A DNA stretch of 57,462 bases, the filler included, from Sphacelaria rigidula (taxonomy: Eukaryota), in NCBI GenBank assembly GCA_964200075.2. It is 7 parts of 7 records of this genome, joined end to end, with 100 filler letters (N's around TTAATTAATTAA, not from the genome) between each part and the next. Parts side by side here need not be neighbours in the genome. Positions count along the whole stretch, not along the records: positions 49,341 to 57,462 come from CAXNAA020012218.1; 6 more parts are not named here. The stretch is one strand, 5' to 3'. The notes beneath the pieces are model-generated. The model was given only the letters and a program-made list of their open reading frames with translations, made no database searches and was not told where the DNA came from. This document shows positions 13,356 to 57,462 of this stretch, piece by piece. The stretch's first letter is position 1. Each line of letters opens with the position of its first letter. Both the position numbers and the translations under genes were made by a program.

Positions 13356-16348
13356 GTAGTTCGGGTTCACGTCCATTCGTTTTTTTTTGTTGCTGGCGCA
13401 CTGTAGTCCCTGCTGTCGTCGGGACGAGTCCGTGGTCTCAAGGGATAGATCCATTTCTCTCTCTCTCTCTCTCTCTCTCTCTTGAGTATTTCAGGATGAT
13501 GGGGAGTCGTTAAACGGTAGTAATAACGGATAGGCGGGATGCCACGTTGCCATGGATGTTATGACACGTCCGATCCATATGAGAAATGTTTTCCTCGCCC
13601 CCTGCCCTTCCCCATCTCCGGTATACAAAGTGGACACCCACCAAGGGGGATGGTAGGTTGATGAATTGGTCGCTTGATTGATCTTATTTCATTGAGTGTC
13701 GCGCGACAGTGACTGATCCCCGAGGGACCCAGTCGTGGTCATTATCCACACGATAGATGAATCCAAGGTAAGCAAGGCCGGAAGCATTCGCTCGAGCGCA
13801 AAATTGCGTAAACTGAACAAACCGCAAGACAAAGCACAGAAAGAATAAAAAATAATAAAGACAGTGAACATAGACGGGCGGGAGAGGAGAACGGCAAGGA
13901 AAACTAATCTCAATGAAACAGTTCATAGGTGAAGTAGTAACCAACAAGAAAATACTGGTCCCTTCAGCATGGCGTCAGGTGAAGGAGTTGCGAAAGTTCC
14001 CTGAGAAACGCCGCGAAATATAGTTCGAAACCGCACTATTCGGACATGAATGCTCACCCACGAGCTCTACAAACGCGAGGCACAAGCACTACTACACTGC
14101 CGTATGTATGGAGCCGAAAAAAAATGACAAAGCGAAACAAAACGAGACTAAACCAAACAACGGTCGGGAAGAAAGAAAGAAAAAGAGAGGGAAAGAGAAA
14201 GAGACGCAGCGGGGGAAAAGGGAAATAAGGGGACAAAGAACATATTGAACGCAAGGACGCAGTGGAACATATGTATTCAAGGAAACAGATAGTTCTGATG
14301 GTTAAGGTTGCAAGGATAGGGAAAAATACGAACAACCGATGAGGTGGGACAGTATAAATCCTTGAATCCTTGATCCTAACCTCAGTCCTAACCCTGACCC
14401 TTCTCGAAGCTTTCCACAAAGTTCACACGGGACACCTGAAAAATGACAACAGACCAGAACCATGCCTCCCTCCCTTGTTAAATCTCTCTCAAATAAATAT
14501 CGGTCTTGTCAGTGAAGGAGCAACTTACGTTGCTTCAGAAAGATCTAAATCGTTGAGATATTTCGAGGCATTCCGAGTATTCTTTTGGTGTGCAGTACTA
14601 CAGCGCAAAGCGCTCTTCTTTACACATTGAGCATCACCTCGGAATCACTCAAGAATGTTTCAACCTGACGATGTCCGAAAATGAAGCAAGTCATCGGAGG
14701 TTAAAATCCACATGCAAGATAATCAGTACGCTCCGGGCCAAACTATATTTGTACAGTGTATCTCACCCTTTGTGTGACTCGTCGAACACATCACGGTGCT
14801 CCGCGCTTGATGATTTCAAGCCTGGTCCGGTGAACCCCGGCGAGCTACGTCCCGGCTTCGTGGGGATGCGAAGCCAATGGTCTTATGACTGCGGCATGCA
14901 AGATCATGAGTACACCCGCTCCCCTCTACCACGGGAAAAATATGTACTCGCGAGAGATCAAGGCATATCCCCCCCGACACCTACATTTATCTTGCGTTTC
15001 TGGCATTGAAGTATCGACATCCCCGCAACCCGTCGCCTTTCGCCAAAATATTTTGTTTTGCGCCTTGCTCTGCGCGTACAGACTTCATAGACAACCCCTG
15101 ACAATCCAACGTGCCGATGCAAATTTCCCGTGCGACATATACTGCATATTGACTCTCATCGAGGATAGCTCAAGACAGATACTAGATACTTCGAAGTATA
15201 TGCACATCACATCACATCACATCACATCATATTTATCAGGGTCACGGTTTTCATCGTCGTCATTTTCGAATGAAGACGGTACTGTTGCCCTTGCAAGAGC
15301 CGCCATGGTGATAATTAAAAGCTGTGGGAGAAATGAATGTATATATATATATATACCATTTCGCCGTAATTCTCCTTCGAGAAGCGGGCAGTTGTCCTGC
15401 GAACCAGTGGGTGCTCACTGGCAAAAAGGCCAAATGTCTGCTGCTCGAGCGAAACGATATGGGGTGTGGAGCATCCCGGTACGATCGTATTAGGACTCTC
15501 CGGTCTCCACACTGCCCGCAGACCTCACGGGTCACATGTCAATCTACACCGGCAATCGATCGCCTTGGGGCTCGAATGCTCGATCTCTTGTCCCGCATGC
15601 GGACATTTTGACCATTGACGCACGAGTGAGCGTTCAATAAATCAAACCTCACAGATGTCCGCTTCTTGAACGAATGATGTGGGGTTTGATGCCCACCGTG
15701 ATCGATTGGAAGCGGAATTTTGATCCTGAACGGACAGGCTTGCGACGGGCTGGGGGCTCCGAAGATTACTCATGTGTCATGCGGGGATGGAGCACGCACC
15801 ACATCTTTTAACCTTTGAAGCATTAAGCGCTTGCGGATTCAAGGATCGCATACCCGCTTCGTGACCGAATCCTCGGACGGGTTTAGCGGAGTTTTCTCGC
15901 CGTTTTGCGGGTGAACAGAAACTCTGCTTGCGAAAATGCTTTCCAGTGGTGATACTCTTCGGCGTGAGTTCTCGATTTTTCGAATTGGGGTTGAACTCTC
16001 ATAGTGTTCAACCCCCAAAATTAGAATTGGCTGCTGGATTGTGATCCACTCTGGTCATCACACCGAGATTCACATGTTGAACGCAACAGCTTTCCAGCAC
16101 AATCAAGCAGCTTCGGAAGCGGACTCGACGCCCCGTAAGCGGGTTATTCTGCACGGCGAGTAACCAAGTTGTGTTGTCTATGCTCCACACCCCTACGGGC
16201 TAGACACGGCATCATAGAGCTCGAGATGGCCCAGTATTTCTTGGGAGCACATGGCGTTATCATCAGGGTAGGCTCGGATTTCCCCGGGCCGAGAGTGGTA
16301 CCCTGAACAGCCAATCATCTATGTTGAGGATGGTGCTTTTGATTGAGG

Positions 16349-19249: not shown

Positions 19250-22030
19250 AGCGAGCAAGGAGTGGGAAAGGATAGAGACAAGTAAGGTGTTGGCATGGGT
19301 TAGAAGGGCAAGACGGAGAGTATGCATAGCCAATGGAACAACAAAACTAGGACGTAATCCACGGGTAAAGGGAGGGAGAGAGGCAAGAACGGGTAAGTGC
19401 CCGGAAGGGGAAGGGAAGAGGGCATAGCGATCCGCAGCAAATAGACGAAACCCAACGCGGAAACGGGAAGAACAATCAAGCAAGGGAAAGTAAAAGTAAA
19501 AATGATGTAGAGAGAACAGTAGACAACACGAGAGCAGATGATAATTCGAAAAGGAAGTTGAGAGTAGGATCGTGGAACGTGCTTGGATTCGCCACAGACA
19601 AGTGCAAAATAATATAAATAGCGCAACAAGTAAGCAAACACGACCTAGATATAGAAAGAGGGGGCGGGAAAAGGATGCAAAGCTGAAGAGTGCGTATGGG
19701 TTGGGAATCCAAGAGCAGGGGGGCGGGGAGAGTAGGGTTGTTAGTCAAGGAATATCTGTGTGACAGTATAAAAGTGACCGACGACACGAAATTTGACGAG
19801 AGCATATGGATAAGGGTACTAGGAGAGCGGGGAGCGAAGTATTTTGTCTATAGAGAACATCTGCATACCCCCAGAATCGAAGAGTAGGTTGAACGATATA
19901 CAACTGAGGTTTGGAGGGATAGCAACAGATGTATACAAGTACAAAAGGCAAGGAGGAGTAATGTTAGTGGGAGATTTTAATGCAAGGGTAGAAAGAGCAG
20001 GTCAACCGGATGATATGATCGGGGCATACGGGGAAGATAAGAAGAACACGAATGGGGTAAAAATGCTGAAGTTCTTTGAGACTAACGAACGCTGAACGAT
20101 AGAGCACAAAAGCCAGAGGCGCAATGTACATGGACTAGGATATGCAAAGACAAGAGGGAACGCTCCATTCTTAACTATATAGTGGTAGAGCATGGAAATA
20201 GTAAATATATGAAAGTAAATGTATGCGGGGAGGACGTGGAAACCACAGATCATTGCCTAACATGGACAGAAAGCTAACAAAAGAGAGCTACAGAAAATAG
20301 GCGGGGTAGGAATTCGAACGAATGGAGAATCGATTAACTAGATATGGAAGAAAAACAGCAGGAGTTTCAAGAAGAGGTGGCAAAAAATGAACTGAAATTA
20401 TCCGAGCTGTTGGAACACGTGGGAACAGTTGATACCGAAATGGAAAAAAAATCGGGCAGGAGCAAAGATTATAGAAGGATAGAAGCAGATGGTCAAGAAC
20501 ACAGCAAGTAAAGTCATAGGGAGGAAACTGATCGTATGCAACAGAGCAGTAAAATGGTGGGATGGGGACGTGAAAGAGAGTCTATCAGAGTAAGGAGAGG
20601 CCCACGCGAGGTGGATGTCGAACAAAAGTACGGTTGGATTGGAGGAGTATACTAAAGCTCAAAAGGAAGTAAGAAGATGGTGCAGGAGAAAAAGAAGGAA
20701 GTTTGGAAAGGTGTAGTGAATAAAACAGATGAACATTTCGACGGCGGGACGAGACAGATATGGGTAGGGATAAAAGTGATTATGGAAACCCAGGGAAGAA
20801 AGCTAGACAACGGGATAGCCAGACTCCGGGCACGGAATGGTAAAATGGTCAGTAGTTCGAAGGAGAAGATACAAGTCCTAGTCGAGCACTACCGTAAACT
20901 TGAGGTACCAAAACCTAACAGGACGTTCGACGCGGAATTCGAAATAGAAATCAACCCGTGGGCAGAGGCAAACGTAGAGACGTCAAAGCGGGAGGATAGT
21001 GGCTCGAGAGAATTGCAGAGAGATTTACTAGGCATGAAGGAGAGGAATGCGTAGCAAAACTCAAGAACAAAAAGGCAGCAGGAGCAGACGAAATAGTTAA
21101 TGAACTTCTAAAGTAAGGGAGAGAGGGAATGATTACCATGATGGTTATGCTGTATAACTGGATCTGGGAAACGAGTACACACCCAAGAGGTGGAGAGAAG
21201 GAGCAGTCGTCAACCTTTTCAAAAAAGGAGACAAGGCCGACCCAGGAATTGATGGACGGAAAACGCTACTAAACATGGTAGGGAAAACATTCTGTAATAT
21301 TATGAACGATAGAGTAGGAACGATGCTAGAAAAGGAAGACAAAATCGGCGAGGGGCAAGCAGGATTTAGGCCAAACCGTAGTTGCATAGACCATGTGTGC
21401 AGACTAGGTAAGATTATTCAGGGTATGAAAGACACCGGGCTGGCAACGTACCGTTTCTTTCTGGTCGTACGAACGGCTCATGACACAGTATGGAGAAATG
21501 GGTTGTGGAAAAACTTGTGGAAAGCTGGGATCAGAGGAAAGATGCGGAGAATGGTGAAGATGACATAATGTGCCAAAAGTGCTATGATATTAGACGGGGA
21601 AATATCGCAATATTTTGATATTTTACAAGGAGTTGCACAAGGACGTATGTTATAACCCACTTTGTTCAAGGTGTTTATCAATGACCTGATGTTAGCAATA
21701 AAAGCAGCAAAGCAAGAAGTCAAGGTGGGTGAAGATATGGTATCAGGATTGATGTCCGAGCGCTAGAGTACACTAAGAAATGGAGAGTGACAGCGAACAT
21801 TAAAAAATGCGCGGTACTCTTATGTAACGAAGATAAGAAGAATCCGGTAGACTTCAAATGGAAGTGGGGAGAAGAAAATCTGTCGATCGTAGACCAGCAT
21901 ACATATCTTGGTTTAGAGATCTCAAGACACTGTCCTTGGAATGCACACAAAAATAAAGTAGTAGGAAAGCGTAAGACACAGATTGATCCTCAGAGACCCG
22001 CACCTAGATACTAGGATTAAGAGATGTATC
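19250..22030 (+). mobile_element. Decayed LINE (APE endonuclease + reverse transcriptase), antisense within an intron
   Basis: Motifs LRVGSWNV, VMLVGDFNARV, GADEIVNELLK, NLFKKGDKADP, EGQAGFRPNRSCIDHV, DTVWRNGLW, GVAQG, VFINDL, YLGL; many stops and frameshifts; the FADD catalytic motif appears deleted near 21750; ends approximate. Confidence 0.93.
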
Positions 22031-30789: not shown

Positions 30790-30979
30790 GGCCGTGTCTT
30801 ATCAAATTGTTTTTGACTCGAAAACGTACGGTGGAATCAAATTTGCTCGTACCTGATACGTCCACGGCATTCATGTTCTCACCCATGTGAGAAAATAAAT
30901 AGCGTGGACGAATCATGAACGAGCGGATTCGATTCGACCGCACGTTTTCGACACCATAACAATTTGATAAGACACGGCC
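30790..30979. mobile_element. 190-bp PIF/Harbinger (Tourist-like) MITE
   Basis: TIR GGCCGTGTCTTATCAAATTGTT; 3-bp TSD TCA on both sides; diverged copy at 33609-33798. Confidence 0.85.
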
Positions 30980-45420: not shown

Positions 45421-46603
45421 GCCACGGACCCCTTCTTGTACCAGCGCTTGTTCGCCTCTGAGCCTTCGGCAGACGTGCCTTACTAAACTCCGCAGCCCAC
45501 CCTCTCAGCCATGTTTGGCTACTGTCCTAGTGGTCAACACCAACACGCGGAAGAAAGATGTGGACAGACGGGTTGATCTCTTGAGACCACACACTTATCC
45601 CGAGGAAGGCGGCGGGGGAAGGGGTGTACTCATGATCATGCATGCCATAATCATGAGTACACCCCTTTCTTCGCCGCCTTCGGCAGGGGAAGGGGGGAGG
45701 GTTGAACGTGCGACGAAACAACAGCATACGTAAGGAAGAATTCCCATCATGTAAAGGATGGCACATGCAAAGTGGAACAAAATCATTGAAAACGAAAAGT
45801 TCGGGTAAAACCGTTATGACGCATGGAAGTTCGGAACAACTGCGCCTGTCACTTTGAGAGGTGTACACGCCCCCTTGATCGAAGTATGCATATATTTGAC
45901 AAGCAAAGCACCGTGATTTTTGCTCTATTCTCGCTGCGATATGGTACAGATGTTGCGCGGTACTCGCCACAGTTTCGATGAATTACGTTACAGCACAGCG
46001 TGGTAGTCGTCATCTGCGGTGCTGTACCAAAGGAGAAGCGATACGCACGGGGAAATGCGACCTTCCGCGGTACAGCGGTAAGTGGGTGCTGGAGTTTGCA
46101 CGTTCGCGCGGTACCGAGGATATTGTCCACACACCGCGTTGAACCGCGTTCTTTTTCCTGCAGCGAACGCACTGAGAGCGGCCCCGAAAAAGGCAAAGAG
46201 CAAGAATGTGGGACCGTATACCCGTAGGACCCCCGACGACAAGCTGGCCCGTAAATCGTGCTAGAGTGACCACAGGGGAGATTGCTTCCGAGATTTGTGT
46301 CGGGTAGGAATGTATCCTGACCCCCGGGATTTGAGATCGAACGGCAACAGCGATGAGTCTTGGTAACAGGAAAGCGTGGGAAAATCGCTTTCATTCGAAC
46401 ACAAGATGTACAAAGGGTGACTAGCGTACATCAACATATCCACAGTCAGCTTGGGTGGATGGTCTTCGTGGTGCTGATTGGATCAATCACTGCAGGGACG
46501 TAGGCCATGCGCGGCACATCGCCATTCGACCTCGGCGAAAGTTCCGTTGTGGTAGTGGTTCTTTGCAAAGAACCACAGTCAGTAGTACAGTAGAATTATC
46601 ATC

Positions 46604-49240: not shown

Positions 49241-49340
49241 NNNNNNNNNNNNNNNNNNNNNNNNNNNNNNNNNNNNNNNNNNNNTTAATTAATTAANNNN
49301 NNNNNNNNNNNNNNNNNNNNNNNNNNNNNNNNNNNNNNNN
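49241..49340. other. Artificial contig spacer
   Basis: N44-TTAATTAATTAA-N44. Confidence 0.99.
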
Positions 49341-49586
49341 ATCCTCCGGGTTCTCATCCTCAATGAAAAGCACCATCCTCAACATAGATGATTGGCTGTT
49401 TATAGCCAATAACCCAGTCTAGAGGGATTCCACGGTAGTAGGGGCGCACTTTTCACTTCACGTTGTAGTCCAAACGTTTTCTGAAGTTGCACACTAAGGC
49501 CCAGGTGTCTGTCATCCAGAGGCTCCGGCAGTGCGGAACCTCAAAACAAATTGTGGACCTCTAACAACGTAGAAGCACCCTTGATC

Positions 49587-49666
49587 TGTTCAGGAAGCGA
49601 ACAGTTTACCCATTGAACCAGTGAGCGCTCACTGGTTCAACGGGTAAATTGTTCGCTTCCTGAACA
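49587..49666. repeat. 80-bp spacerless palindrome (P1) centred on AGCGCT
   Basis: 40-bp arms with 2 mismatches; TGT...ACA ends. Confidence 0.95.
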
Positions 49667-50447
49667 AAGGATATGCTGTGTGGTCCGTCCTGCCGGCATG
49701 ACATACCAGATCGGTGATCTCCGCGGGGCCTCTTGCCCCTCGCGAGCCTCACTGTTCAGACGTATGTCTTGGTTGGTACGAGAGAGACGTCTGCCGGGTC
49801 CGCTCGAAGACCTCATCATAATGTGACAGAACGATGTTTGGTACTGAGGATCTAGATCTCAGGCGAACCGTACTTCCGCGACACATCAAGCACAATTGCG
49901 GGTATTGTGGTGACCGCCAATCCATCCCGCCGACCGAAAATAACCACGCTGGGGGTGCGTATCTTTGGCTCAGGGGTGAGTCACGGTGCGTGACGGATGT
50001 GCTTGACGGCGAGAAATATATTATTATCTTGTATGGTATACAAAACTCTGTCGATCGTACTGTATATTGACACCTTGACTACTATGACGGTATGAGTGCT
50101 GCTCTGGGTGGTATCAGGTGAGACAGATTAAGCGTAGTTACGGGTAGTGAGCATCAATTGATAACGGCGACGGAAAAGAACCACGCTGGCGGTGCGTATC
50201 TTTTGACTCAGAGGTGGGCTGGGGCGGTGCGTGACGCAAGTCCTCTTTGATGGCGAGACAGATACTACGGTCTTCTTGTGAATACAACTATGTCTACAAG
50301 TAAAGACAAAGATATAACGGTGGGGGAACACGTCATGACCTCTCACGGAACGGTAGTAGTAGTGCAGTCAGATGCAACACTGCTTCTACGCGGTAGGATA
50401 CGATTCGTTCACACCATTTTCCCAGAGGCTGGCAATAGTGAGGAGCC

Positions 50448-50862
50448 TGTTAAGAAACCGATTGACTGCTGAGCTAGTCAGCCAGCGCTGGCTGACTAGC
50501 TCAGCAGTCAATCGGTTTCTTAACAAGAGCTAAATTGTGTAGGTCCGTCACATGACCCCGGGCACTCACGCCCCAGGGTTGCTATCCCTGTAAACAACGC
50601 TGTTAAGTTAAACCGGTAGACTTCGACCGCACCCGGCGCTCAACATCGAAGTCAAGTTCTCTGACTTTCCTTTTCTTTCCACCGCGCCAACGCGACATCG
50701 AAAAATGATTTTACTTACACAGGGATTCGAACCCTAGAACCTAGCTTACCGGTTGACTGCTGTTCTAGTCAGCCAGCGCGGGCTGTTAAGCTCATCGTCA
50801 ATCTCATTGAATGCTGCGACGAGCTAAAAAAGCGAGCTCAGCAGTCAATCGATTTCTGAACA
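50448..50862. mobile_element. 415-bp TGT...ACA element opening with a perfect 78-bp palindrome (P2, 50448-50525)
   Basis: Distal TIR AGCTCAGCAGTCAATCGATTTCTGAACA; flanks GAGCC/GAGCT; minus-strand B box GGTTCGAATCCC at ~50722-50733. Confidence 0.75.
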
Positions 50863-50879
50863 GAGCTGTACCAAACACT

Positions 50880-51503
50880 GCTTTGTTTTTTCTGTTGATT
50901 TTGTCACAAGAAATTGATCAATAAGCACTGACAAGAACCGAAAAGTCTGGTGGGCTTAGCGGGGTTCGTATATCTGCTTCTGCTCCTTGCTCGCTCTGTC
51001 CCGATGACCTCAGATGTCGGAGGGCATTCTTTTTTTATTTGTCATCATTTTTCGGATATTTTTCTGTTAACTTTGTTGCAAGAAACTGACCAATAAACAC
51101 TGACAAGAACCGAAAAGTCTGGTGGGCTTAGCGGGGCTCGTATATCTGCTTCTGCTCCTTGCTCGCTCTGTCCCGATGACCTCAGATGCCGGAGGGCATT
51201 TTTTCGAAAATTGTCACGATTTTTCGGATTTGTTAACGTGAACTTTATTGCAAGAAACTGACCACTAAACACTGACAAAAACCGAAAAGTCTGGTGGGCT
51301 TTGCGAGATTAATACATTTGCTTCTGCTCCTCGCCCGCTTTGTCCCGATGGCCTCAGATGCCGAAGGGAATTTTTTCGAAAATTGTCATGATTTTTTGGA
51401 TATTTCTCTGTTAACTTTGTTGCAAGCAATTGATCAATAAACATTGGCGAAATCCGAAAAGCCTTGAGAGCTTCGCGTGGTTTGTGTATTTGCTTCTGCT
51501 CCT
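50880..51503. repeat. Tandem array of a 172-bp unit (~3.6 copies)
   Basis: Equivalent positions at 50927, 51099, 51271 and 51443; reverse copies at ~6690-6800 and ~56980-57395. Confidence 0.9.
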
Positions 51504-52472
51504 GAATATATATATATATATATATATATAAGGATCTCTACTGTCCACGGCAGCTGAACGCATCCGTCAAGGCTTCGGCAATAAACTAGGGAACACATGG
51601 CTGGGTGTCCCTCCTCTCCCCCCCCTTATCCCCCCCCCCCTCAAAAACTCAAATCTTCGATCTTGGGGCCAATGTGTCCAGATTTGTTTTTTCGCTGCCC
51701 CAGCCGTGGTCACATGAAGGACGTGCCCGAGACGAAACATAAAGTAAATACCCTACTATACCTTGACTACTGAGACGATGTGAGTACCCCGGGTTTCTCA
51801 GACACGTGGCACTGTGGCGTGCAGCAGCACCATACTACTTTTTTTCGCGGACAGACAGGCCGTGGTCTATGACGTCCGCGTGAGGCAAACATCCACATCG
51901 TCTATGACGCCGACCGTGGGAGAAGGGCATGTTCTATGTACAGTGTGTGTGTCGTGTTTGGGTACAAGACGGGTGACCCCGCTGCTTGATGCAAATCCCC
52001 AGAGGAGAGAGAAAGACATGCATGACTCAATTACAGGCTTTTATTGATTTTCTTGTATAGTACTTCGAACTACATGGTGAGTGTTATTACCCTGATAGTC
52101 TCTGACCCTTACGGAAAGCGCAACATGTCATCACGCGCCGATCGAGAGGAACGAATAAACGTGTCTTCGTGTGAAACGGGTGCCTGACGCCGTTTCAGCG
52201 GATTCGAGAACGACATATAAGGTAGTACCGTACAAGACGGACGCAGCATCTCCCGGTGTGATACAGCTCTCTTTATTCGTGTGCTGCATCGAGGCACGGA
52301 TACGTGATCGATCTCAACATTTTGCCGTGCTACAGACAAATGGACATGACTAGGCATGGGCAATATTTTACTGGAGAGGTATTTCAAACTCGACATTGCC
52401 GGTATATTTGACTGTAATTTACAGTCAAATATACCGGGAACCACGTGTTTGAGATAGCTCTATTGTGCGATC

Positions 52473-52603
52473 TGTGACGGTTTAAGAGACAACCAACTAG
52501 ACTACTGACAAGTCAGCGCTGACTTGTCAGTAGTCTAGTTGGTTGTCTCTTAAACCGTCACAAAAGTTAGTCGCTGGTTCGATTCCCGTCCTAAACCGTC
52601 ACA
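52473..52603. mobile_element. 131-bp TGT...ACA element made of a perfect 90-bp palindrome (P3, 52473-52562) plus a B-box tail
   Basis: Distal TIR TAAACCGTCACA; GATC on both flanks; A box TAGTCTAGTTGG and B box GGTTCGATTCCC. Confidence 0.75.
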
Positions 52604-52709
52604 GATCTCGTTTATCGGAAGCCCGAACGACATGCAAATTTAAAGCTGTGCATCACATATCATTGCAACGACAAAGGCTCCGCCAGGGTGTACTTGGTAG
52701 TTCGGAACC

Positions 52710-52966
52710 GAGCAATGCTACGGTAGGGGTGCACTTTTTTCGCGAAATTTTGTCTGGCTCAGGGGCTCCTAACGATTCTGGACGCACAAGAACATGGGTC
52801 AGAGCATCCCCGTTCGCAGATTCATTCGGGATATCCCCAACATATTGGAATAGTAATCCTGGTGTACTCTAGCATGTTTTTATAAGTCGTGTTTTGGATG
52901 AGATAAAGGGCTCCTAATAATTCCAACCTCAGAAAATATTTGTGTACCCCTACCGCAGCATCACTC
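52710..52966 (+). mobile_element. 257-bp Sola-like MITE
   Basis: GAG...CTC TIRs as in 655-766; 4-bp TSD AACC. Confidence 0.85.
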
Positions 52967-54095
52967 AACCGGGTGAGTGGAAAGAGTACCATGGCTAGTA
53001 CGAGGGTTCGACGCATGGTGAGAGCTGTGTAGCTGGAGTGCGGTTTGTGTCATTCATAATGAAGACAACGATAAACGTCGCTGGCCCATTACCACAGCTG
53101 TGTCCGGCAAGTTCCAGTAGACACAATGGAGTAGACACGATGACCCAATCAGTGCATGCTTGTATGCGTTTCAGCGATTTTGCGGAAATATCCAAGCTGA
53201 CGAAGTCAGGATATGCATGCAGTAGTTCACAATTGATTACTTTGTCGATTTCTCACCCTGCGTGCTGCCTCACAACTGCTGCAATGATACCCGGTCTTTC
53301 TGGACCTGCTTATTCATCATTCTGTTCGCAGAAGCTCAGGTTGAAGCAGTGCCCGCACGTCGTCGCTGCACCTTACCTACAACGAAGACAACCCCTCACC
53401 CCACTCTAGCCCTTACTTTGGTTAAGTACGAGAGTGGTGAAACAAGCCAAGGGTCATATCACAATATTGTCAGGACCCCCCCCCTCCCTCTCCGCCCATC
53501 TATCTCCCTCGTAGCGGTGGGCGTCAGATGGCAACGACGCTGTAAAACATGCTACTACGTGAGCTAGGCAACCAGGTTACCGTTTTCTTTGCCCACTCGC
53601 GTCTTATTGCGGGAGTCACGACGGTGGTCGAGTTGGGCCACATTGTGCGAGGTGGGAAAACCTCAACTCAGCGCAAAGGGAATTTTTGTACCACGCAGCG
53701 TTTATATGATGAGACACCCATGAGGCAGTCTAACCCGTGGCTGTCTCTGGGAGTGGCTATACCAGAGAATGAAGCATTTCATTGCTGGCTGTCATCCACA
53801 AGCAAGGTAATTGGTGCGCTCCGGGCTGAAAAATGTCAGCACGATGCAGCTCACTCTTCATTCAACCCGCCGATTACATCACGGCGCTTCATGCTCGACG
53901 ACTGCAAGCCTGGTCCGGCGAAAATTCGGCGTGCTCCGTCCTGGCCTTACAGGGATGCGACATCAAGGGTCTTATAACTACGGCATGCAAGATCATGAGT
54001 ATACCCTCTGGTTCCCCCGTACTCCTGTGCGTGGGGCGTATGTCCTTTGTATTGGCAACACGCACGACATGTTCACCTTGCTTGACAGGGAATAG

Positions 54096-54463
54096 TAGAG
54101 CTCGGAAATGGTACTAGTTATAACTGGCCATTATCATTATAATGCTAATAATTGCAATGATTACATGAAAAATTCGGATAATGGCTTCAAACCATTATTT
54201 ACCGTTACCGGCTTCATAAGCCGTTACCGGCTACGTATGCCAAATCCAGCCTTAAACATTGGCCCAAATTTGATGTATTTCTTAGCTCTAGTGAAGCCAA
54301 ATCGCGTACAAACGGCGCCCCCCCCCCTGCCGGGGGAGGCTTTTTGGCTCGCGGCTGCGGCGCTCGATGACCAAACCATTATATACCATTCAACTGGTTG
54401 ATGAATGCGCTACGCGTGACCATTCAGCTGGTTGTTGGTTGAGCAAACCATTTCCGAGCTCTA
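54096..54463. mobile_element. 368-bp hAT-type MITE
   Basis: Perfect 17-bp TIR TAGAGCTCGGAAATGGT; perfect 8-bp TSD GGGAATAG. Confidence 0.9.
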
Positions 54464-54589
54464 GGGAATAGGTACAGCTGTTGCGCCAACGAACTTCGAT
54501 GTAGACATCTGTGAGCGCGGAAACTCACGGTGGGCACTCAGTCTACCGGGCTCTCGCCGCCATCGTGAATATTGTTGGCGACTACTACA

Positions 54590-54845
54590 GCCGTCGCACC
54601 CCGGTGGTGTAAGTCAAAATGCCCCGTCTGACACCATTAGGGCGGAGAGAACGTTGGTTCAATTCCCGCCAGACGCGTTGGGATTTTTCTTCAAAAGTAT
54701 ATCATCTACACCGGTAAAAGCGCGAGCGCGTGAGTAGACAAAAAATAGTGTTATATTAGTCGGCTGAGTTTGTTTGACGAGAGTTGACACGGTGCGGGAT
54801 TGCTGACCCGATCCGCGAGACGGAAATGCAAGGTGTGCACCGGGA
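54590..54845 (+). mobile_element. Degenerate SINE-like element
   Basis: GCCGTCGCACCCCGGTGG head, B-box-like GGTTCAATTCCC; similar to 45175-45420. Confidence 0.5.
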
Positions 54846-55760
54846 GAGAGAGAGATGGCTTGATCACTTCAGACAACGGACTCGTCCCGTGGGAGGGGAG
54901 GAAGGGTTTCGAGTGTGACAAAACATAAATGTACGACTAATCTCGCTACGCGTAGGTGCGGCAGACATCTTCATGTACGTGGAGAATTGTCCCTTCCCGG
55001 AAACTCAAGTGTTGTTGAACGCCTCAGGTGTTTGTTAGACCGTGGAGCGCGCATCCTTGAGAGGGCTTGGCATTGTCGCCAGAATGGGGAGGGGCGAGGA
55101 ATGTACATGTATGTCACGGACACGTGAGTAAGTATCAACGTTTACTCGGGCAGGTATTTCGTGATTCGGGACTGAAACATCTCACCGTCTCCGTGAAGGG
55201 CAAGTTGGAATGAAATTATCTGATTGGTTCGAAAGGAGAACTTGCGAAAATCTGATAGGCTGGATTTCCTCAGTCCTCGGCCAACGGCATCCATGTCTAT
55301 TTGGAGCGTAAGGGGAGTTTTGGAGATGGATTACACAATGAGTTGGCTTTTGCAATTTGGATAAAAAAAAAAAGTGAGAAATTCCCGAAAATTTGTTACC
55401 GTAGCATTTTCCGTGAAGACCATCCCAGTGCGCGAGTGAGAGCTGTCGGTGCTGGGAGAACAGGACAAAGATACGAGCTGGGCTAGCTGATAGTGATTTG
55501 TGAATGTTTCTGGTCCCGGCTGTGGGTGATCCACGGAGTTGGGTGCTGAAATTTTGACACGGTATTTTTATCATCAATGCGCACATTACACAGGATGCCA
55601 CGAAAAAGAAGAAACAGAGAGTTGGAGCGATTTGCAAGTTTCTGCCAAAAACTGGAATAATGCTGTGACTCCGTGAAAATGAAGAAATACGGCGGCATCC
55701 GTCGTCTTGTTGTGCGTCCTTGTGTGTATGAGAACCTGGTAAAATTTCGGCCAAAAATTC

Positions 55761-56707
55761 CACACGTCATATGAGTCATGCACTAGTCGGAACGAGTGCA
55801 CTCTTGGATGTTTTTTGAAAACATAACGAGCATGACTCGTGTGCTCGAGTCATTCATCTCTTTCACAACGAGCGATGACTCGTATGCTCGAGTAATGATT
55901 TTTTTTCACACTGAGCAATGATCCGTGTGCTCGAGTTATTAGTTTTTTTACGACAGAGCAATAACTCGTGTGCTCGAGTTATTAGTTTTTTTACGACGAG
56001 CAATGACTCGTATGCTCGAGTCATGATTTTTTTTCACAATGAGCAATGACTCGTGTGCTCGAGTCATTAGTTTTTTCACAAGGGGCGATGACTCGTGCGC
56101 TCGAGTCATTAGTTTTTTTACAACGAGCAATGACTCGTGTACTCGACCATCCATTTTTGTCACAACGAGCAATGATTCGTGTGCTCGAGTCATGATTTTT
56201 TTACAACGAGCAATGACTCGAGTGCTCGCCCTATGAATATACAACTCGAGAGATACTCTCCGCCGCTTTAGTAGAACTCTTATCTGTGTGTGGGGGGGAG
56301 GGAGGGGAGGGACGGGGGGGGTACCTGGATAACATGAAAACGAGCTTTGGAGCTCGACGCTTGTACATGTGCAGATATGCACATGAACTCGAAGATTCTA
56401 GGTTCAAGATCGTCGAAGAGCTCATGATAATTTGATGCTCGTCGAATTGCTGACGTCTCCACTCAAGTCGTTTATCACGAGCAATGACTCGTGTGATCCA
56501 GTCTTCACTTCTCCACCACGGGCAATGACTCGACTCCTCGCGCCCTATTATTTTTTTCCACAACGAGCAATGACTCGAGTGCTCGCCCTTTCAATTTTTT
56601 CCACAACGAGCAATGACTCGAATACTCGCCTTACTACTTTCTATGGCCAACGAGCAGCCCAACGAGAGTGAGCGCCACGAGTCATACTCGTGCTCGTCCG
56701 ACGTGTG
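55761..56707. mobile_element. MULE-like non-autonomous element with internal ~42-bp tandem repeats
   Basis: Ends CACACGTC/GACGTGTG; flanks CAAAAATTC/AAAAAATTC (9-bp TSD, 1 mismatch); array of ACGAGCAATGACTCGTGTGCTCGAGTCAT units. Confidence 0.6.
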
Positions 56708-57171
56708 AAAAAATTCCTGAAATTGGGCGCACGCGGGCACTTTTCGCGTGAAACGGCTGGGCCCCATTGGTCAAAACTGGTACAACAGCCTCCAATTACA
56801 TAGGTCACAACAGGGGGGGGCGTAATAACAGATTCTGGACATGTAGGCCCCAAGATTGAAAATTTGAGTTTCTGAGGGTGCGCGGGGGGGGGGGGGGGGG
56901 CACCCAGCCGTCTGTCCCCTAGTTTATCGCCGAAGCGTTTGGCGGATGCGGTCAGCTGCCGGGGACAGAGATGCTCAGCATGGAGACCTGAGGCCATCGG
57001 GACAGAGCGGGCAAGGAGCAGAAGCAAATTTTAGACAAACCCCGCAAAGCTCACTAGACTTTTCGAATTGTGTCAGTGCTTATTGATCAATTTCTTGCAA
57101 CAAAATTAAGGGGGGGGAACAAAATCAGGACGATTTTCGAAAAAGTGCCCTCCGGCATCTGAGGTTATCGG

Positions 57172-57372
57172 TGTAATGCGTGAGAAGACATCGTGCTTAG
57201 AGGACCGCATCAGAATTTGAACATCCCCATGGTCAGGGTTAGGGTTGCGGGGTTAGGGTCAGGGGCGTGGTCCCCGCATGGACTGGACCGATTGGTTTTG
57301 AAAAACGTCGATCGTGAGGTGTTTCGAACTACGACGCGGTCCCTTGAGCACGCGGTCCTCTCACGCATTACA
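57172..57372 (+). mobile_element. 201-bp TGT...ACA MITE with TTAGGG tract, inserted into a 172-bp repeat unit
   Basis: ~35-40 bp TIRs; TSD ATCGG/ATCGC, supported by comparison with the uninterrupted unit at ~56996-57020. Confidence 0.8.
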
Positions 57373-57462
57373 ATCGCGACAAAGCAGGCAAGGAGTGTGT
57401 GTGTGTGTGTGTGTGTGTTGTCGTCCCATTTATTCTGGGCACCAGTCTACACCTTTCGGTGT

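Follow-up and report, generated by a model that had tools for sequence, protein, structure and literature searches.

A class of small palindrome-ended elements with tRNA-type promoter boxes in Sphacelaria rigidula, probably mobilized by retrotransposon enzymes

Three palindromes were analyzed within 3 kb of the genome of Sphacelaria rigidula (assembly GCA_964200075.2). They lie at positions 49,587 to 52,603 of a stretch of 57,462 nucleotides, filler included, which joins seven parts of seven records and is termed the window here; the part concerned (49,341 to 57,462) derives from CAXNAA020012218.1. A palindrome scan recovered P1 (40-bp arms, two mismatches), P2 (39-bp arms, perfect) and P3 (45-bp arms, perfect) where an earlier note on this DNA had placed them, each loop-less, centered on AGCGCT and bounded by TGT...ACA. 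The scan, which allowed loops of 0–11, revealed no further loop-less palindrome above the score cut-off in the whole window. The A-box-like motifs in the arms, the B box of P3, the GATC on both sides of P3 and the GAGCC/GAGCT pair around the 415-bp P2 unit also were present as described. The earlier note regarded the palindromes as unrelated, but P1, P2 and P3 are members of one class of gene-less, high-copy elements with at least 11 families, which bears out the proposal that a tRNA-type promoter is coupled to a terminal hairpin. These elements probably are mobilized by the reverse transcriptase and integrase belonging to long terminal repeat (LTR) retrotransposons.

The features of the three copies are collected in Table 1. 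P1 represents the promoter-poor end of a truncated copy, which stops at 49,758 and shows neither a second end nor a target-site duplication. P2 is a 415-bp copy that reads right to left and whose promoter end is rearranged. The B box reported inside this unit is present, but lies on the minus strand and is part of the far, right-hand end; in intact copies a minus-strand P2 RNA is predicted to stop at the T-run adjoining the left-hand palindrome. P3 is a 131-bp deletion form of an element of ~500 bp in which the promoter end is kept.

Table 1. Positions, along the whole window, of features assigned to the P1, P2 and P3 copies.
Feature	Position	Strand	Basis or remark
P1 terminal palindrome, promoter-poor ('A-side') end, truncated element	49587..49666	.	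aligns to 1-162 of full P1 copy
A-box-like motif, P1 inner arm	49633..49643	+	sequence; family position has 0 mismatches to A-box consensus
P1 inner extension of AAAG type containing a degenerate B box, then beginning of body including conserved internal motif	49667..49758	+	
Left target duplication GAGCC, P2 element	50443..50447	+	sequence; family duplication 5 bp
P2 terminal palindrome (39-bp arms), A-side end	50448..50525	.	palindrome scan
A-box-like motif, P2 inner arm	50497..50507	+	sequence; box scoring
Conserved internal motif of P2 element (axis-like GCG(C/T)TG, G-tract, short stem)	50574..50602	-	
Intact B box, right-hand (promoter) end of P2 element	50723..50733	-	sequence; box scoring
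Rearranged right-hand P2 palindrome; the core (50747-50803) is degenerate, and 50835-50862 is a piece of terminal arm with ACA at its end	50747..50862	.	
Right target duplication GAGCT, P2 element, 1 mismatch	50863..50867	+	sequence
Left target duplication GATC, P3 element	52469..52472	+	sequence; family duplication 4 bp
P3 terminal palindrome at the promoter ('B-side') end, arms of 45 bp	52473..52562	.	palindrome scan
A box, P3 inner arm	52531..52542	+	0 mismatches in box scoring
AAAG-x segment directly after ACA, P3; predicted self-primer site	52563..52573	+	complements predicted RNA 3' end in full copies
B box of P3, 45 nt after A box	52576..52586	+	box scoring
Final 14 bp of a terminal arm, where the 131-bp P3 deletion form ends	52590..52603	+	
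Right target duplication GATC, P3 element	52604..52607	+	sequence

Fold-back during library preparation or assembly might be suspected as the source of such structures, as the earlier note recognized: the assembly was built from short reads into 27,214 contigs, many element copies sit at contig ends, and no DNA contig crossing the P2 axis was among the public matches listed. However, the palindromes are neither chance occurrences nor fold-back products because the repeats are dispersed as hundreds of diverged copies, the two arms of one copy differ by 2.9–4.5 bases on average, and exact target duplications flank the outer arms. Moreover, the left arm of P2 is joined to unique flank in public contigs from three samples of two studies, and its right arm is joined to the body in the contig of one sample. 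An artefactual origin thus is extremely improbable.

The assembly that was searched comprises 244 Mb and includes a plastid-like contig that carries psaL. First-look DNA searches of the genome produced 336, 82 and 703 candidate loci for P1, P2 and P3, respectively, with 40 candidates scored per family. The pattern TGT-N30-44-AGCGCT-N30-44-ACAAAAG gave 435 matches compared to 64 for its reversed control; overlapping matches were tallied separately and part of the matches listed are unrelated repeats. At least eight further palindrome families, F4–F11, were read among 100 matches listed, with arms of 37–44 bp whose common features are only the axis region, the A box and the ACA end. Among the first 90 loci the axis was AGCGCT in 77 of 112 palindromes, a tally that is no test of enrichment because the loci were picked by similarity. 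A 633-kb census that was not chosen for palindromes contained two long palindromes (loops up to 3), neither with AGCGCT nor of this class; it is too small to gauge axis enrichment genome-wide and shows that other palindrome types exist. Further long palindromic or fold-back families without an AGCGCT axis were noted at loci L053, L055, L020, L151 and L269, and at 30,818–30,951 and 45,605–45,681 of the window. Summed DNA depth over P3 was thousands of times that of unique flanks, which is not a copy number. Three families in 3 kb greatly exceed the mean density of ~1,100 first-look loci per 244 Mb, and members of different families also are neighbors at L009, L179 and L312; possible explanations are a common preference in insertion or a domain rich in repeats. 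The window also contains, at 15,381–15,809, an old degraded P1-like element with 67–71% identity to a full P1 copy, which apparently consists of an inverted dimer whose point of joining, a decayed axis, lies near 15,628. The pattern matched twice in metagenome collections that hold few algal genomes, neither match being palindromic, and two axis 10-mers had no match in five supplement files of an Ectocarpus study, which may omit its sequence library (PMC12477816).

Full monomers are 270–550 bp in length with a palindrome at each end, and multimers extend to about 1 kb. A monomer is ordered as palindrome, AAAG-x with intact B box, body, conserved motif, degenerate inverted x, CTTT and palindrome. 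The conserved motif, aligned for 14 copies from 11 families, consists of GCG(C/T)TG, a G-tract and a short stem; its putative role likely is that of a plus-strand primer or packaging signal, and RNAalifold returned no consensus structure for it. The A box is inside the palindrome, whereas the B box is 10–19 nt outside and is intact at one end only. When heads were scored with consensus patterns, the spacing between the boxes was 43–45 nt in seven of nine heads and 48 and 51 nt in the other two, compared to 42–45 nt in six host tRNAs; one P1 subfamily head was outside the scoring. Shuffled sequences attained the box scores in 0/1500 cases for eight heads and in 6/1500 for one. The tRNA-like character first ascribed to the arms therefore holds for the boxes and their spacing, but it does not extend to tRNA genes: ARAGORN detected none in the window, and Rfam searches of 49,300–53,000 produced only generic hairpin (microRNA) matches below cut-off, with no tRNA and no ribozyme. 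Nor are the promoters truly head-to-head, as had been envisaged. A boxes face both ways, yet a tRNA-spaced B box follows the inward arm of one end only.

The distribution of T-runs on the two strands was markedly uneven. In 29 copies totaling 6.1 kb, runs of at least four T before the far CTTTT, which adjoins the far palindrome on the B-box strand, occurred once on that strand and 64 times on the opposite strand. The counts for the B-box and the other strand were 0 and 50 in P3, 0 and 14 in P2, 0 and 0 in both P1 and F7, and 1 and 0 in F10. This asymmetry points to a single RNA polymerase III (Pol III) transcript with its stop at the far palindrome. Because the predicted RNA would run from the axis to a point before the far palindrome, it would take the form of a panhandle and not of a long hairpin; the hairpin RNA suggested previously would require read-through, and would not be the main product. 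None of the sequencing runs listed was labeled as RNA. Contigs of two runs guessed to be RNA cover the body of P3, although strand, start and level are not shown by contigs.

Target duplications of 4–5 bp, as foreseen in the earlier note, were confirmed by counts of outer-end pairs. Exact duplications of 4 bp were present in 13 of 28 P3 pairs and of 5 bp in none, whereas exact 5-bp duplications were found for seven of 19 P1 pairs and two of 14 P2 pairs. With one mismatch allowed the numbers were 18 for P3, 10 for P1 and five for P2, and mismatched control pairs matched 0–1.5% of the time; the loose end search yields some false pairs. Ectocarpus families are listed with target-site duplications of 4 bp for Gypsy and 5 bp for Copia (PMC12477816). 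The idea that solo palindromes never carry duplications was discarded as a query bias, as solo or shortened palindromes with duplications were identified at four of 20 mid-contig P3 loci. Two atypical ends also were observed: a P2 copy at L032:1471-1800 seems to end at a cryptic ACA within an arm, with an almost exact 5-bp duplication, and an F10 copy at L106:1490-1890 is flanked by an 11-bp inverted repeat instead of a direct duplication.

Links to Copia were apparent in the P1 family. In copy L076, ~220 bp of Copia reverse transcriptase are enclosed by two partial palindromes; a 5-bp duplication bounds the whole, and the left joint shows short homology. Copy L298 is fused to a Copia reverse transcriptase piece (RVT_2, E 3.3e-8) and copy L299 to a piece of the Copia RNase H region; both pieces map to one low-copy Copia family with 31–54 candidates. 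The LTRs of both Copia families compared start TGTTC and P1 starts TGTTCAGG; in Copia family 1 the comparison was confined to the 5' tip of the LTR, as its copies diverge after GGAATA. The LTR of the second family starts TGTTCGT, as do F4 and F6. By eye, the purine tracts of these Copia families look similar to the internal motif's G-tract. In addition, AGCGCT follows the 5' LTR at a distance of a few bases in two of three copies of the Copia family fused to two P1 copies (L376:1408-1425; L394:3426-3443; L391:2635-2652) and the other family has a different short palindrome at this place; neither shows a TGG primer site. These palindromes might be dimerization signals that pair with the first bases of the small RNA. 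For the families with 4-bp duplications, one Gypsy family from 40 integrase loci ends ATCACA. A gag-like frame of 270 codons that runs into the start of the F8 RNA (L297:8694-9781) was rejected as naming a helper because it is single-copy, belongs to no family and has no Pfam match.

The same ends and duplications also suit a different origin, namely a miniature inverted-repeat transposable element (MITE) of Ginger/TDD type moved by an integrase-like transposase, with the tRNA boxes as passengers and the palindrome as a minimal element or doubled terminal repeat. Ginger1 and Ginger2/TDD share TGT...ACA termini, inverted repeats of 40–270 bp and duplications of 4–5 bp with the elements described here (PMC2836005). 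The inverted symmetry continues inside the palindromes, solo palindromes with duplications exist, and an Ectocarpus repeat with TGTTG-CAACA termini, a 5-bp duplication and a length of 502 bp, DNA5-N1_Ec32, is labeled 'possible Ginger?' (PMC12477816). However, the TGTNR terminus of Ginger1 is present in eight of 11 reference palindromes and is replaced by TGTTC in P1, F4 and F6. The P3 duplications are G+C-rich and include CCGG or CCGT in none of 13 exact cases, so that they fit neither the CCGG or CCGT target of Ginger1 nor the AT-rich RTATAY target of Ginger2/TDD (PMC2836005). No long element with P3 ends was found among the first 100 of 388 exact termini in this fragmented assembly. Motifs resembling reverse transcriptase or RNase H were upstream in 18 of 20 integrase loci by a crude pattern, and in two there were none; the available table of Ectocarpus superfamilies has no Ginger entry (PMC12477816). 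Furthermore, DNA transposition requires neither the A–B spacing, nor a T-run gap on one strand, nor Copia reverse transcriptase pieces. A Ginger-type reading with terminal inverted repeats, to which the ends listed in the earlier note pointed, is improbable, and mobilization by LTR-retrotransposon enzymes is better supported by the Copia pieces in P1 and by the duplication lengths.

The two arms of a palindrome change jointly. Diverged copies were dropped from the variant sets (one of 69 for P1, four of 42 for P2 and three of 58 for P3). Variants present on both arms numbered 28, 47 and 53 in P1, P2 and P3, respectively, compared to shuffled means of 6.1, 16.0 and 11.4; for rare variants the values were 6, 5 and 14 compared to 0.3, 0.4 and 0.5, with six of the 14 in P3 contributed by one F7 copy left in and eight remaining without it. 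In 26 elements with two whole palindromes, variants common to both palindromes numbered 14, 27 and 12 against shuffled values of 4.8, 9.5 and 4.2 (p 0.002, 0.017 and 0.007), and copies L013, L084 and L171 have variants present in all four arms. The axis itself is a site of frequent breakage. Among 89 broken palindromes, the break was 0 to +4 from the axis in 25 cases and no more than 8 nt away in 44, whereas an even spread is estimated to give about seven per five positions. Multimers, inverted dimers and two-arm hybrid palindromes are joined at the axis, and one 728-bp trimer resides within a 5-bp duplication. The axis thus behaves as the AGCGCT turnaround site that had been proposed, and the palindromes are predicted to be remade, each from a single arm.

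Loop-less palindromes with a kept core of 6–12 bp, symmetric arms and inverted dimers joined at the axis likewise would be produced by a linear DNA replicon with hairpin ends, of protelomerase or rolling-hairpin type, in which AGCGCT is the resolvase site and resolved ends become integrated. This origin is very improbable. No coding partner was seen, the pattern scan had no match in viral contigs (collections with few algal genomes), an integrase still would be required for the duplications, and the Pol III boxes, T-run gap and Copia pieces would be unexplained.

LTR elements carry a tRNA primer site at the position directly after the terminal repeat. When the predicted RNA, from the axis to CUUU, was folded for 18 copies, the 3' end paired with AAAG-x after ACA with a probability of at least 0.7 in 12 copies (three of six for P3, five of five for P2 and two of five for P1, plus F8 and F10; copy L343 was outside the folded set). 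The pairing leaves the arm free as a template, and in copy L090 a single private change recurs on the two sides of the primer duplex. Pairs with the far end of the same element number 6–15 in most copies. By comparison, the post-ACA segment has no TGG start and its longest complement in six host tRNAs was 5–7 nt.

The latter comparison bears on a more conventional route, in which the elements, still parasites of LTR retrotransposons, copy like a terminal-repeat retrotransposon in miniature (TRIM): read-through into the far palindrome supplies an R region, a host tRNA or fragment primes, and hairpin repair or gene conversion in the chromosome maintains arm symmetry. Termination at four T residues may be leaky, the primer comparison covered only six host tRNA types, palindromes also are direct repeats, and solo repeats with duplications and head-to-tail arrays occur as in TRIMs. 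Among the cross pairs, the arms at inner-5' and outer-3' positions moreover have the largest number of variants in common (18 compared to 11–13). The post-ACA segment nevertheless varies by family and still matches the element's own far end, and ordinary strand transfer leaves unexplained the sharing within palindromes (38 variants in two pair types), the axis breaks and the inverted dimers. Copying in the manner of a TRIM accordingly is judged unlikely.

The architecture, boxes, T-run gap, duplications, joint arm change, axis breaks and Copia fusions are observed; the route by which they would be connected is on balance probable, and entails a Pol III RNA, a borrowed reverse transcriptase and integrase, and palindromes rebuilt from a single arm. 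The RNA would start at the axis (GCGC), proceed through the arm, ACA, AAAG-x, B box and body, and stop at CTTTT before the far palindrome, after which it would be packaged by a retrotransposon particle. Its 3' end (x'-CUUU) would pair with AAAG-x right after ACA, so that reverse transcriptase would begin with TGT and copy the arm to the 5' end of the RNA. The new DNA end, AGCGC(T), is self-complementary and could re-prime on itself or on a second molecule to produce arm-axis-arm and then the body, with the other end arising from a second jump or from re-priming at the axis. Half-palindromes would be products of wrong jumps, as would inverted dimers, multimers in head-to-tail order and chimeras formed with Copia RNA. 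The second strand may be primed by the G-tract of the internal motif or by other purine runs. Integrase would accept the TGT...ACA ends, that of Copia for P1 and probably for P2, F4 and F6 (5 bp), and presumably that of Gypsy for P3 and F7 (4 bp).

A number of observations weigh against this interpretation. No transcript, start site, complementary DNA or particle was seen, the material being assembled contigs only, and no purine tract adjoins the terminal repeat. The T-run signal comes from P3 and P2, whose copies are related to one another, and P1 is uninformative. The pairing at the primer site is permissive and is no proof because any inverted repeat gives the same AAAG-x match; in six of the 18 folded copies the 3' end was off the site, and some subfamily heads (P1 'B2' and F4 inner heads) either have no ACA or are a poor match to the far end, and therefore would need priming in trans. 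One-sided arm differences are the majority (230, 172 and 161 in P1, P2 and P3), and in copies L015, L062 and L188 each palindrome is symmetric yet the two ends differ, which requires two RNAs or later hairpin repair. Solo palindromes with duplications also would be predicted by a cut-and-paste model. The Copia fusions in L298 and L299 are not bounded by duplications and so may reflect later rearrangement. Finally, the helper of P3 and F7 was not found: 71 elements screened contained no Gypsy piece, no Gypsy LTR from the 40 integrase loci started TGTGAC, and a search for a polypurine tract followed by TGTGACG gave noise (69 compared to 50).

If the proposed route is correct, an LTR-retrotransposon particle can convert a Pol III RNA of 200–450 nt into DNA fit for integration, with neither a tRNA primer nor an R region or U3. 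No smaller set of cis signals would then be needed by reverse transcriptase plus integrase, and the choice of RNA by particles could be tested directly. It also would account for a class of repeats, hundreds and perhaps thousands in number, that standard tools would classify as unknown MITEs; these repeats are found at many contig ends of the assembly and distribute Pol III boxes and palindromes prone to cruciform formation throughout an algal genome. Whether the elements exemplify a new mode of LTR-type retrotransposition is proposed tentatively, at slightly less than an even chance. In such a mode no host primer, R region or U3 is used, the terminator end primes and the self-complementary start jumps, half a tRNA gene supplies two palindromic integrase ends in each cycle, and different families parasitize Copia or Gypsy by mimicking the tips of their LTRs.

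Other features were observed near the palindromes. An unrelated inverted repeat with a 1-nt spacer at 52,375–52,461, which has a perfect 19-bp core at 52,399–52,437, ends 11 bp before P3. A tandem array with a 172-bp unit, high-copy in public contigs, occupies 50,900–51,503, and direct repeats at 49,907–49,966 and 50,144–50,203, between P1 and P2, are 237 bp apart and 80% alike. A short TTAA-repeat string between two N runs at 49,285–49,296 probably is a scaffolding linker artefact. Elsewhere in the window, broken reading frames at 20,656–21,568 resemble by eye a non-LTR reverse transcriptase.

Among known systems, short interspersed nuclear elements (SINEs) have duplications of variable length and simple tails or tails like those of long interspersed nuclear elements, in contrast to the fixed duplications of 4 or 5 bp and the integrase-type TGT...ACA on both ends of the elements described here. 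The two groups are alike in length and in the tRNA-type internal promoter at the 5' end of the RNA, as in tRNA-derived SINE2 elements, but SINEs are described as moved by non-LTR elements (PMC10886601). Retrozymes likewise are non-coding, parasitize LTR retrotransposons and take an unusual route through RNA; as described, theirs involves hammerhead ribozymes and circular RNAs (PMC4918200), whereas Rfam identified no ribozyme here. Troyka, with CG ends and 3-bp duplications in its description, was set aside as unrelated (PMC12440569). In comparison with Ginger, no transposase was found here, and neither Pol III boxes nor Copia captures are Ginger features in the account available; the string 'palindrom' is absent from the accessible text of that paper (PMC2836005). 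DNA5-N1_Ec32 of Ectocarpus is unclassified, has termini like those of F10 and is described with a 9-bp imperfect inverted repeat and without palindrome or tRNA boxes (PMC12477816); compared by description only, it could be a relative of these elements. No description of palindrome-ended elements with tRNA boxes was found in the full-text literature, subscription papers, Repbase and Dfam being beyond the reach of the search.

In Tf1 and Tj1, the primer site beside the terminal repeat is complementary to the element's own RNA, as here; the primer in those elements is reported to be the cut 5' end of a Pol II mRNA, in contrast to the uncut 3' end of a Pol III RNA, with no R region, that is predicted for the present class (PMC4600332). 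The closest known system is Helenus/TRIMp3. Elements of this type are non-coding, shorter than ~1.3 kb and have tRNA-type A and B boxes and terminal repeats, with 4- or 5-bp duplications tied to Gypsy or Copia, solo repeats, arrays and several families per genome, all of which is similar to the pattern in S. rigidula (PMC10886601). The TRIM definition of direct repeats with TG...CA also applies formally, because palindromes count as direct as well as inverted repeats. Helenus has been reported from fungi, animals and one plant. Its LTRs are ordinary ones that hold both boxes, and it has a tRNA primer-binding site as well as a purine tract adjacent to the LTR; its author found no self-complementarity for priming, and 'palindrom', 'inverted' and 'hairpin' do not occur in the main text (PMC10886601). 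By contrast, the repeat in S. rigidula is a loop-less palindrome with the A box only, the B box is outside, the primer position matches the far end of the same element, and CTTT precedes the 3' repeat in place of a polypurine tract, with the G-tract tens of bases upstream. Thus, although Helenus/TRIMp3 is the nearest counterpart, the palindrome-ended elements lie outside its definition.

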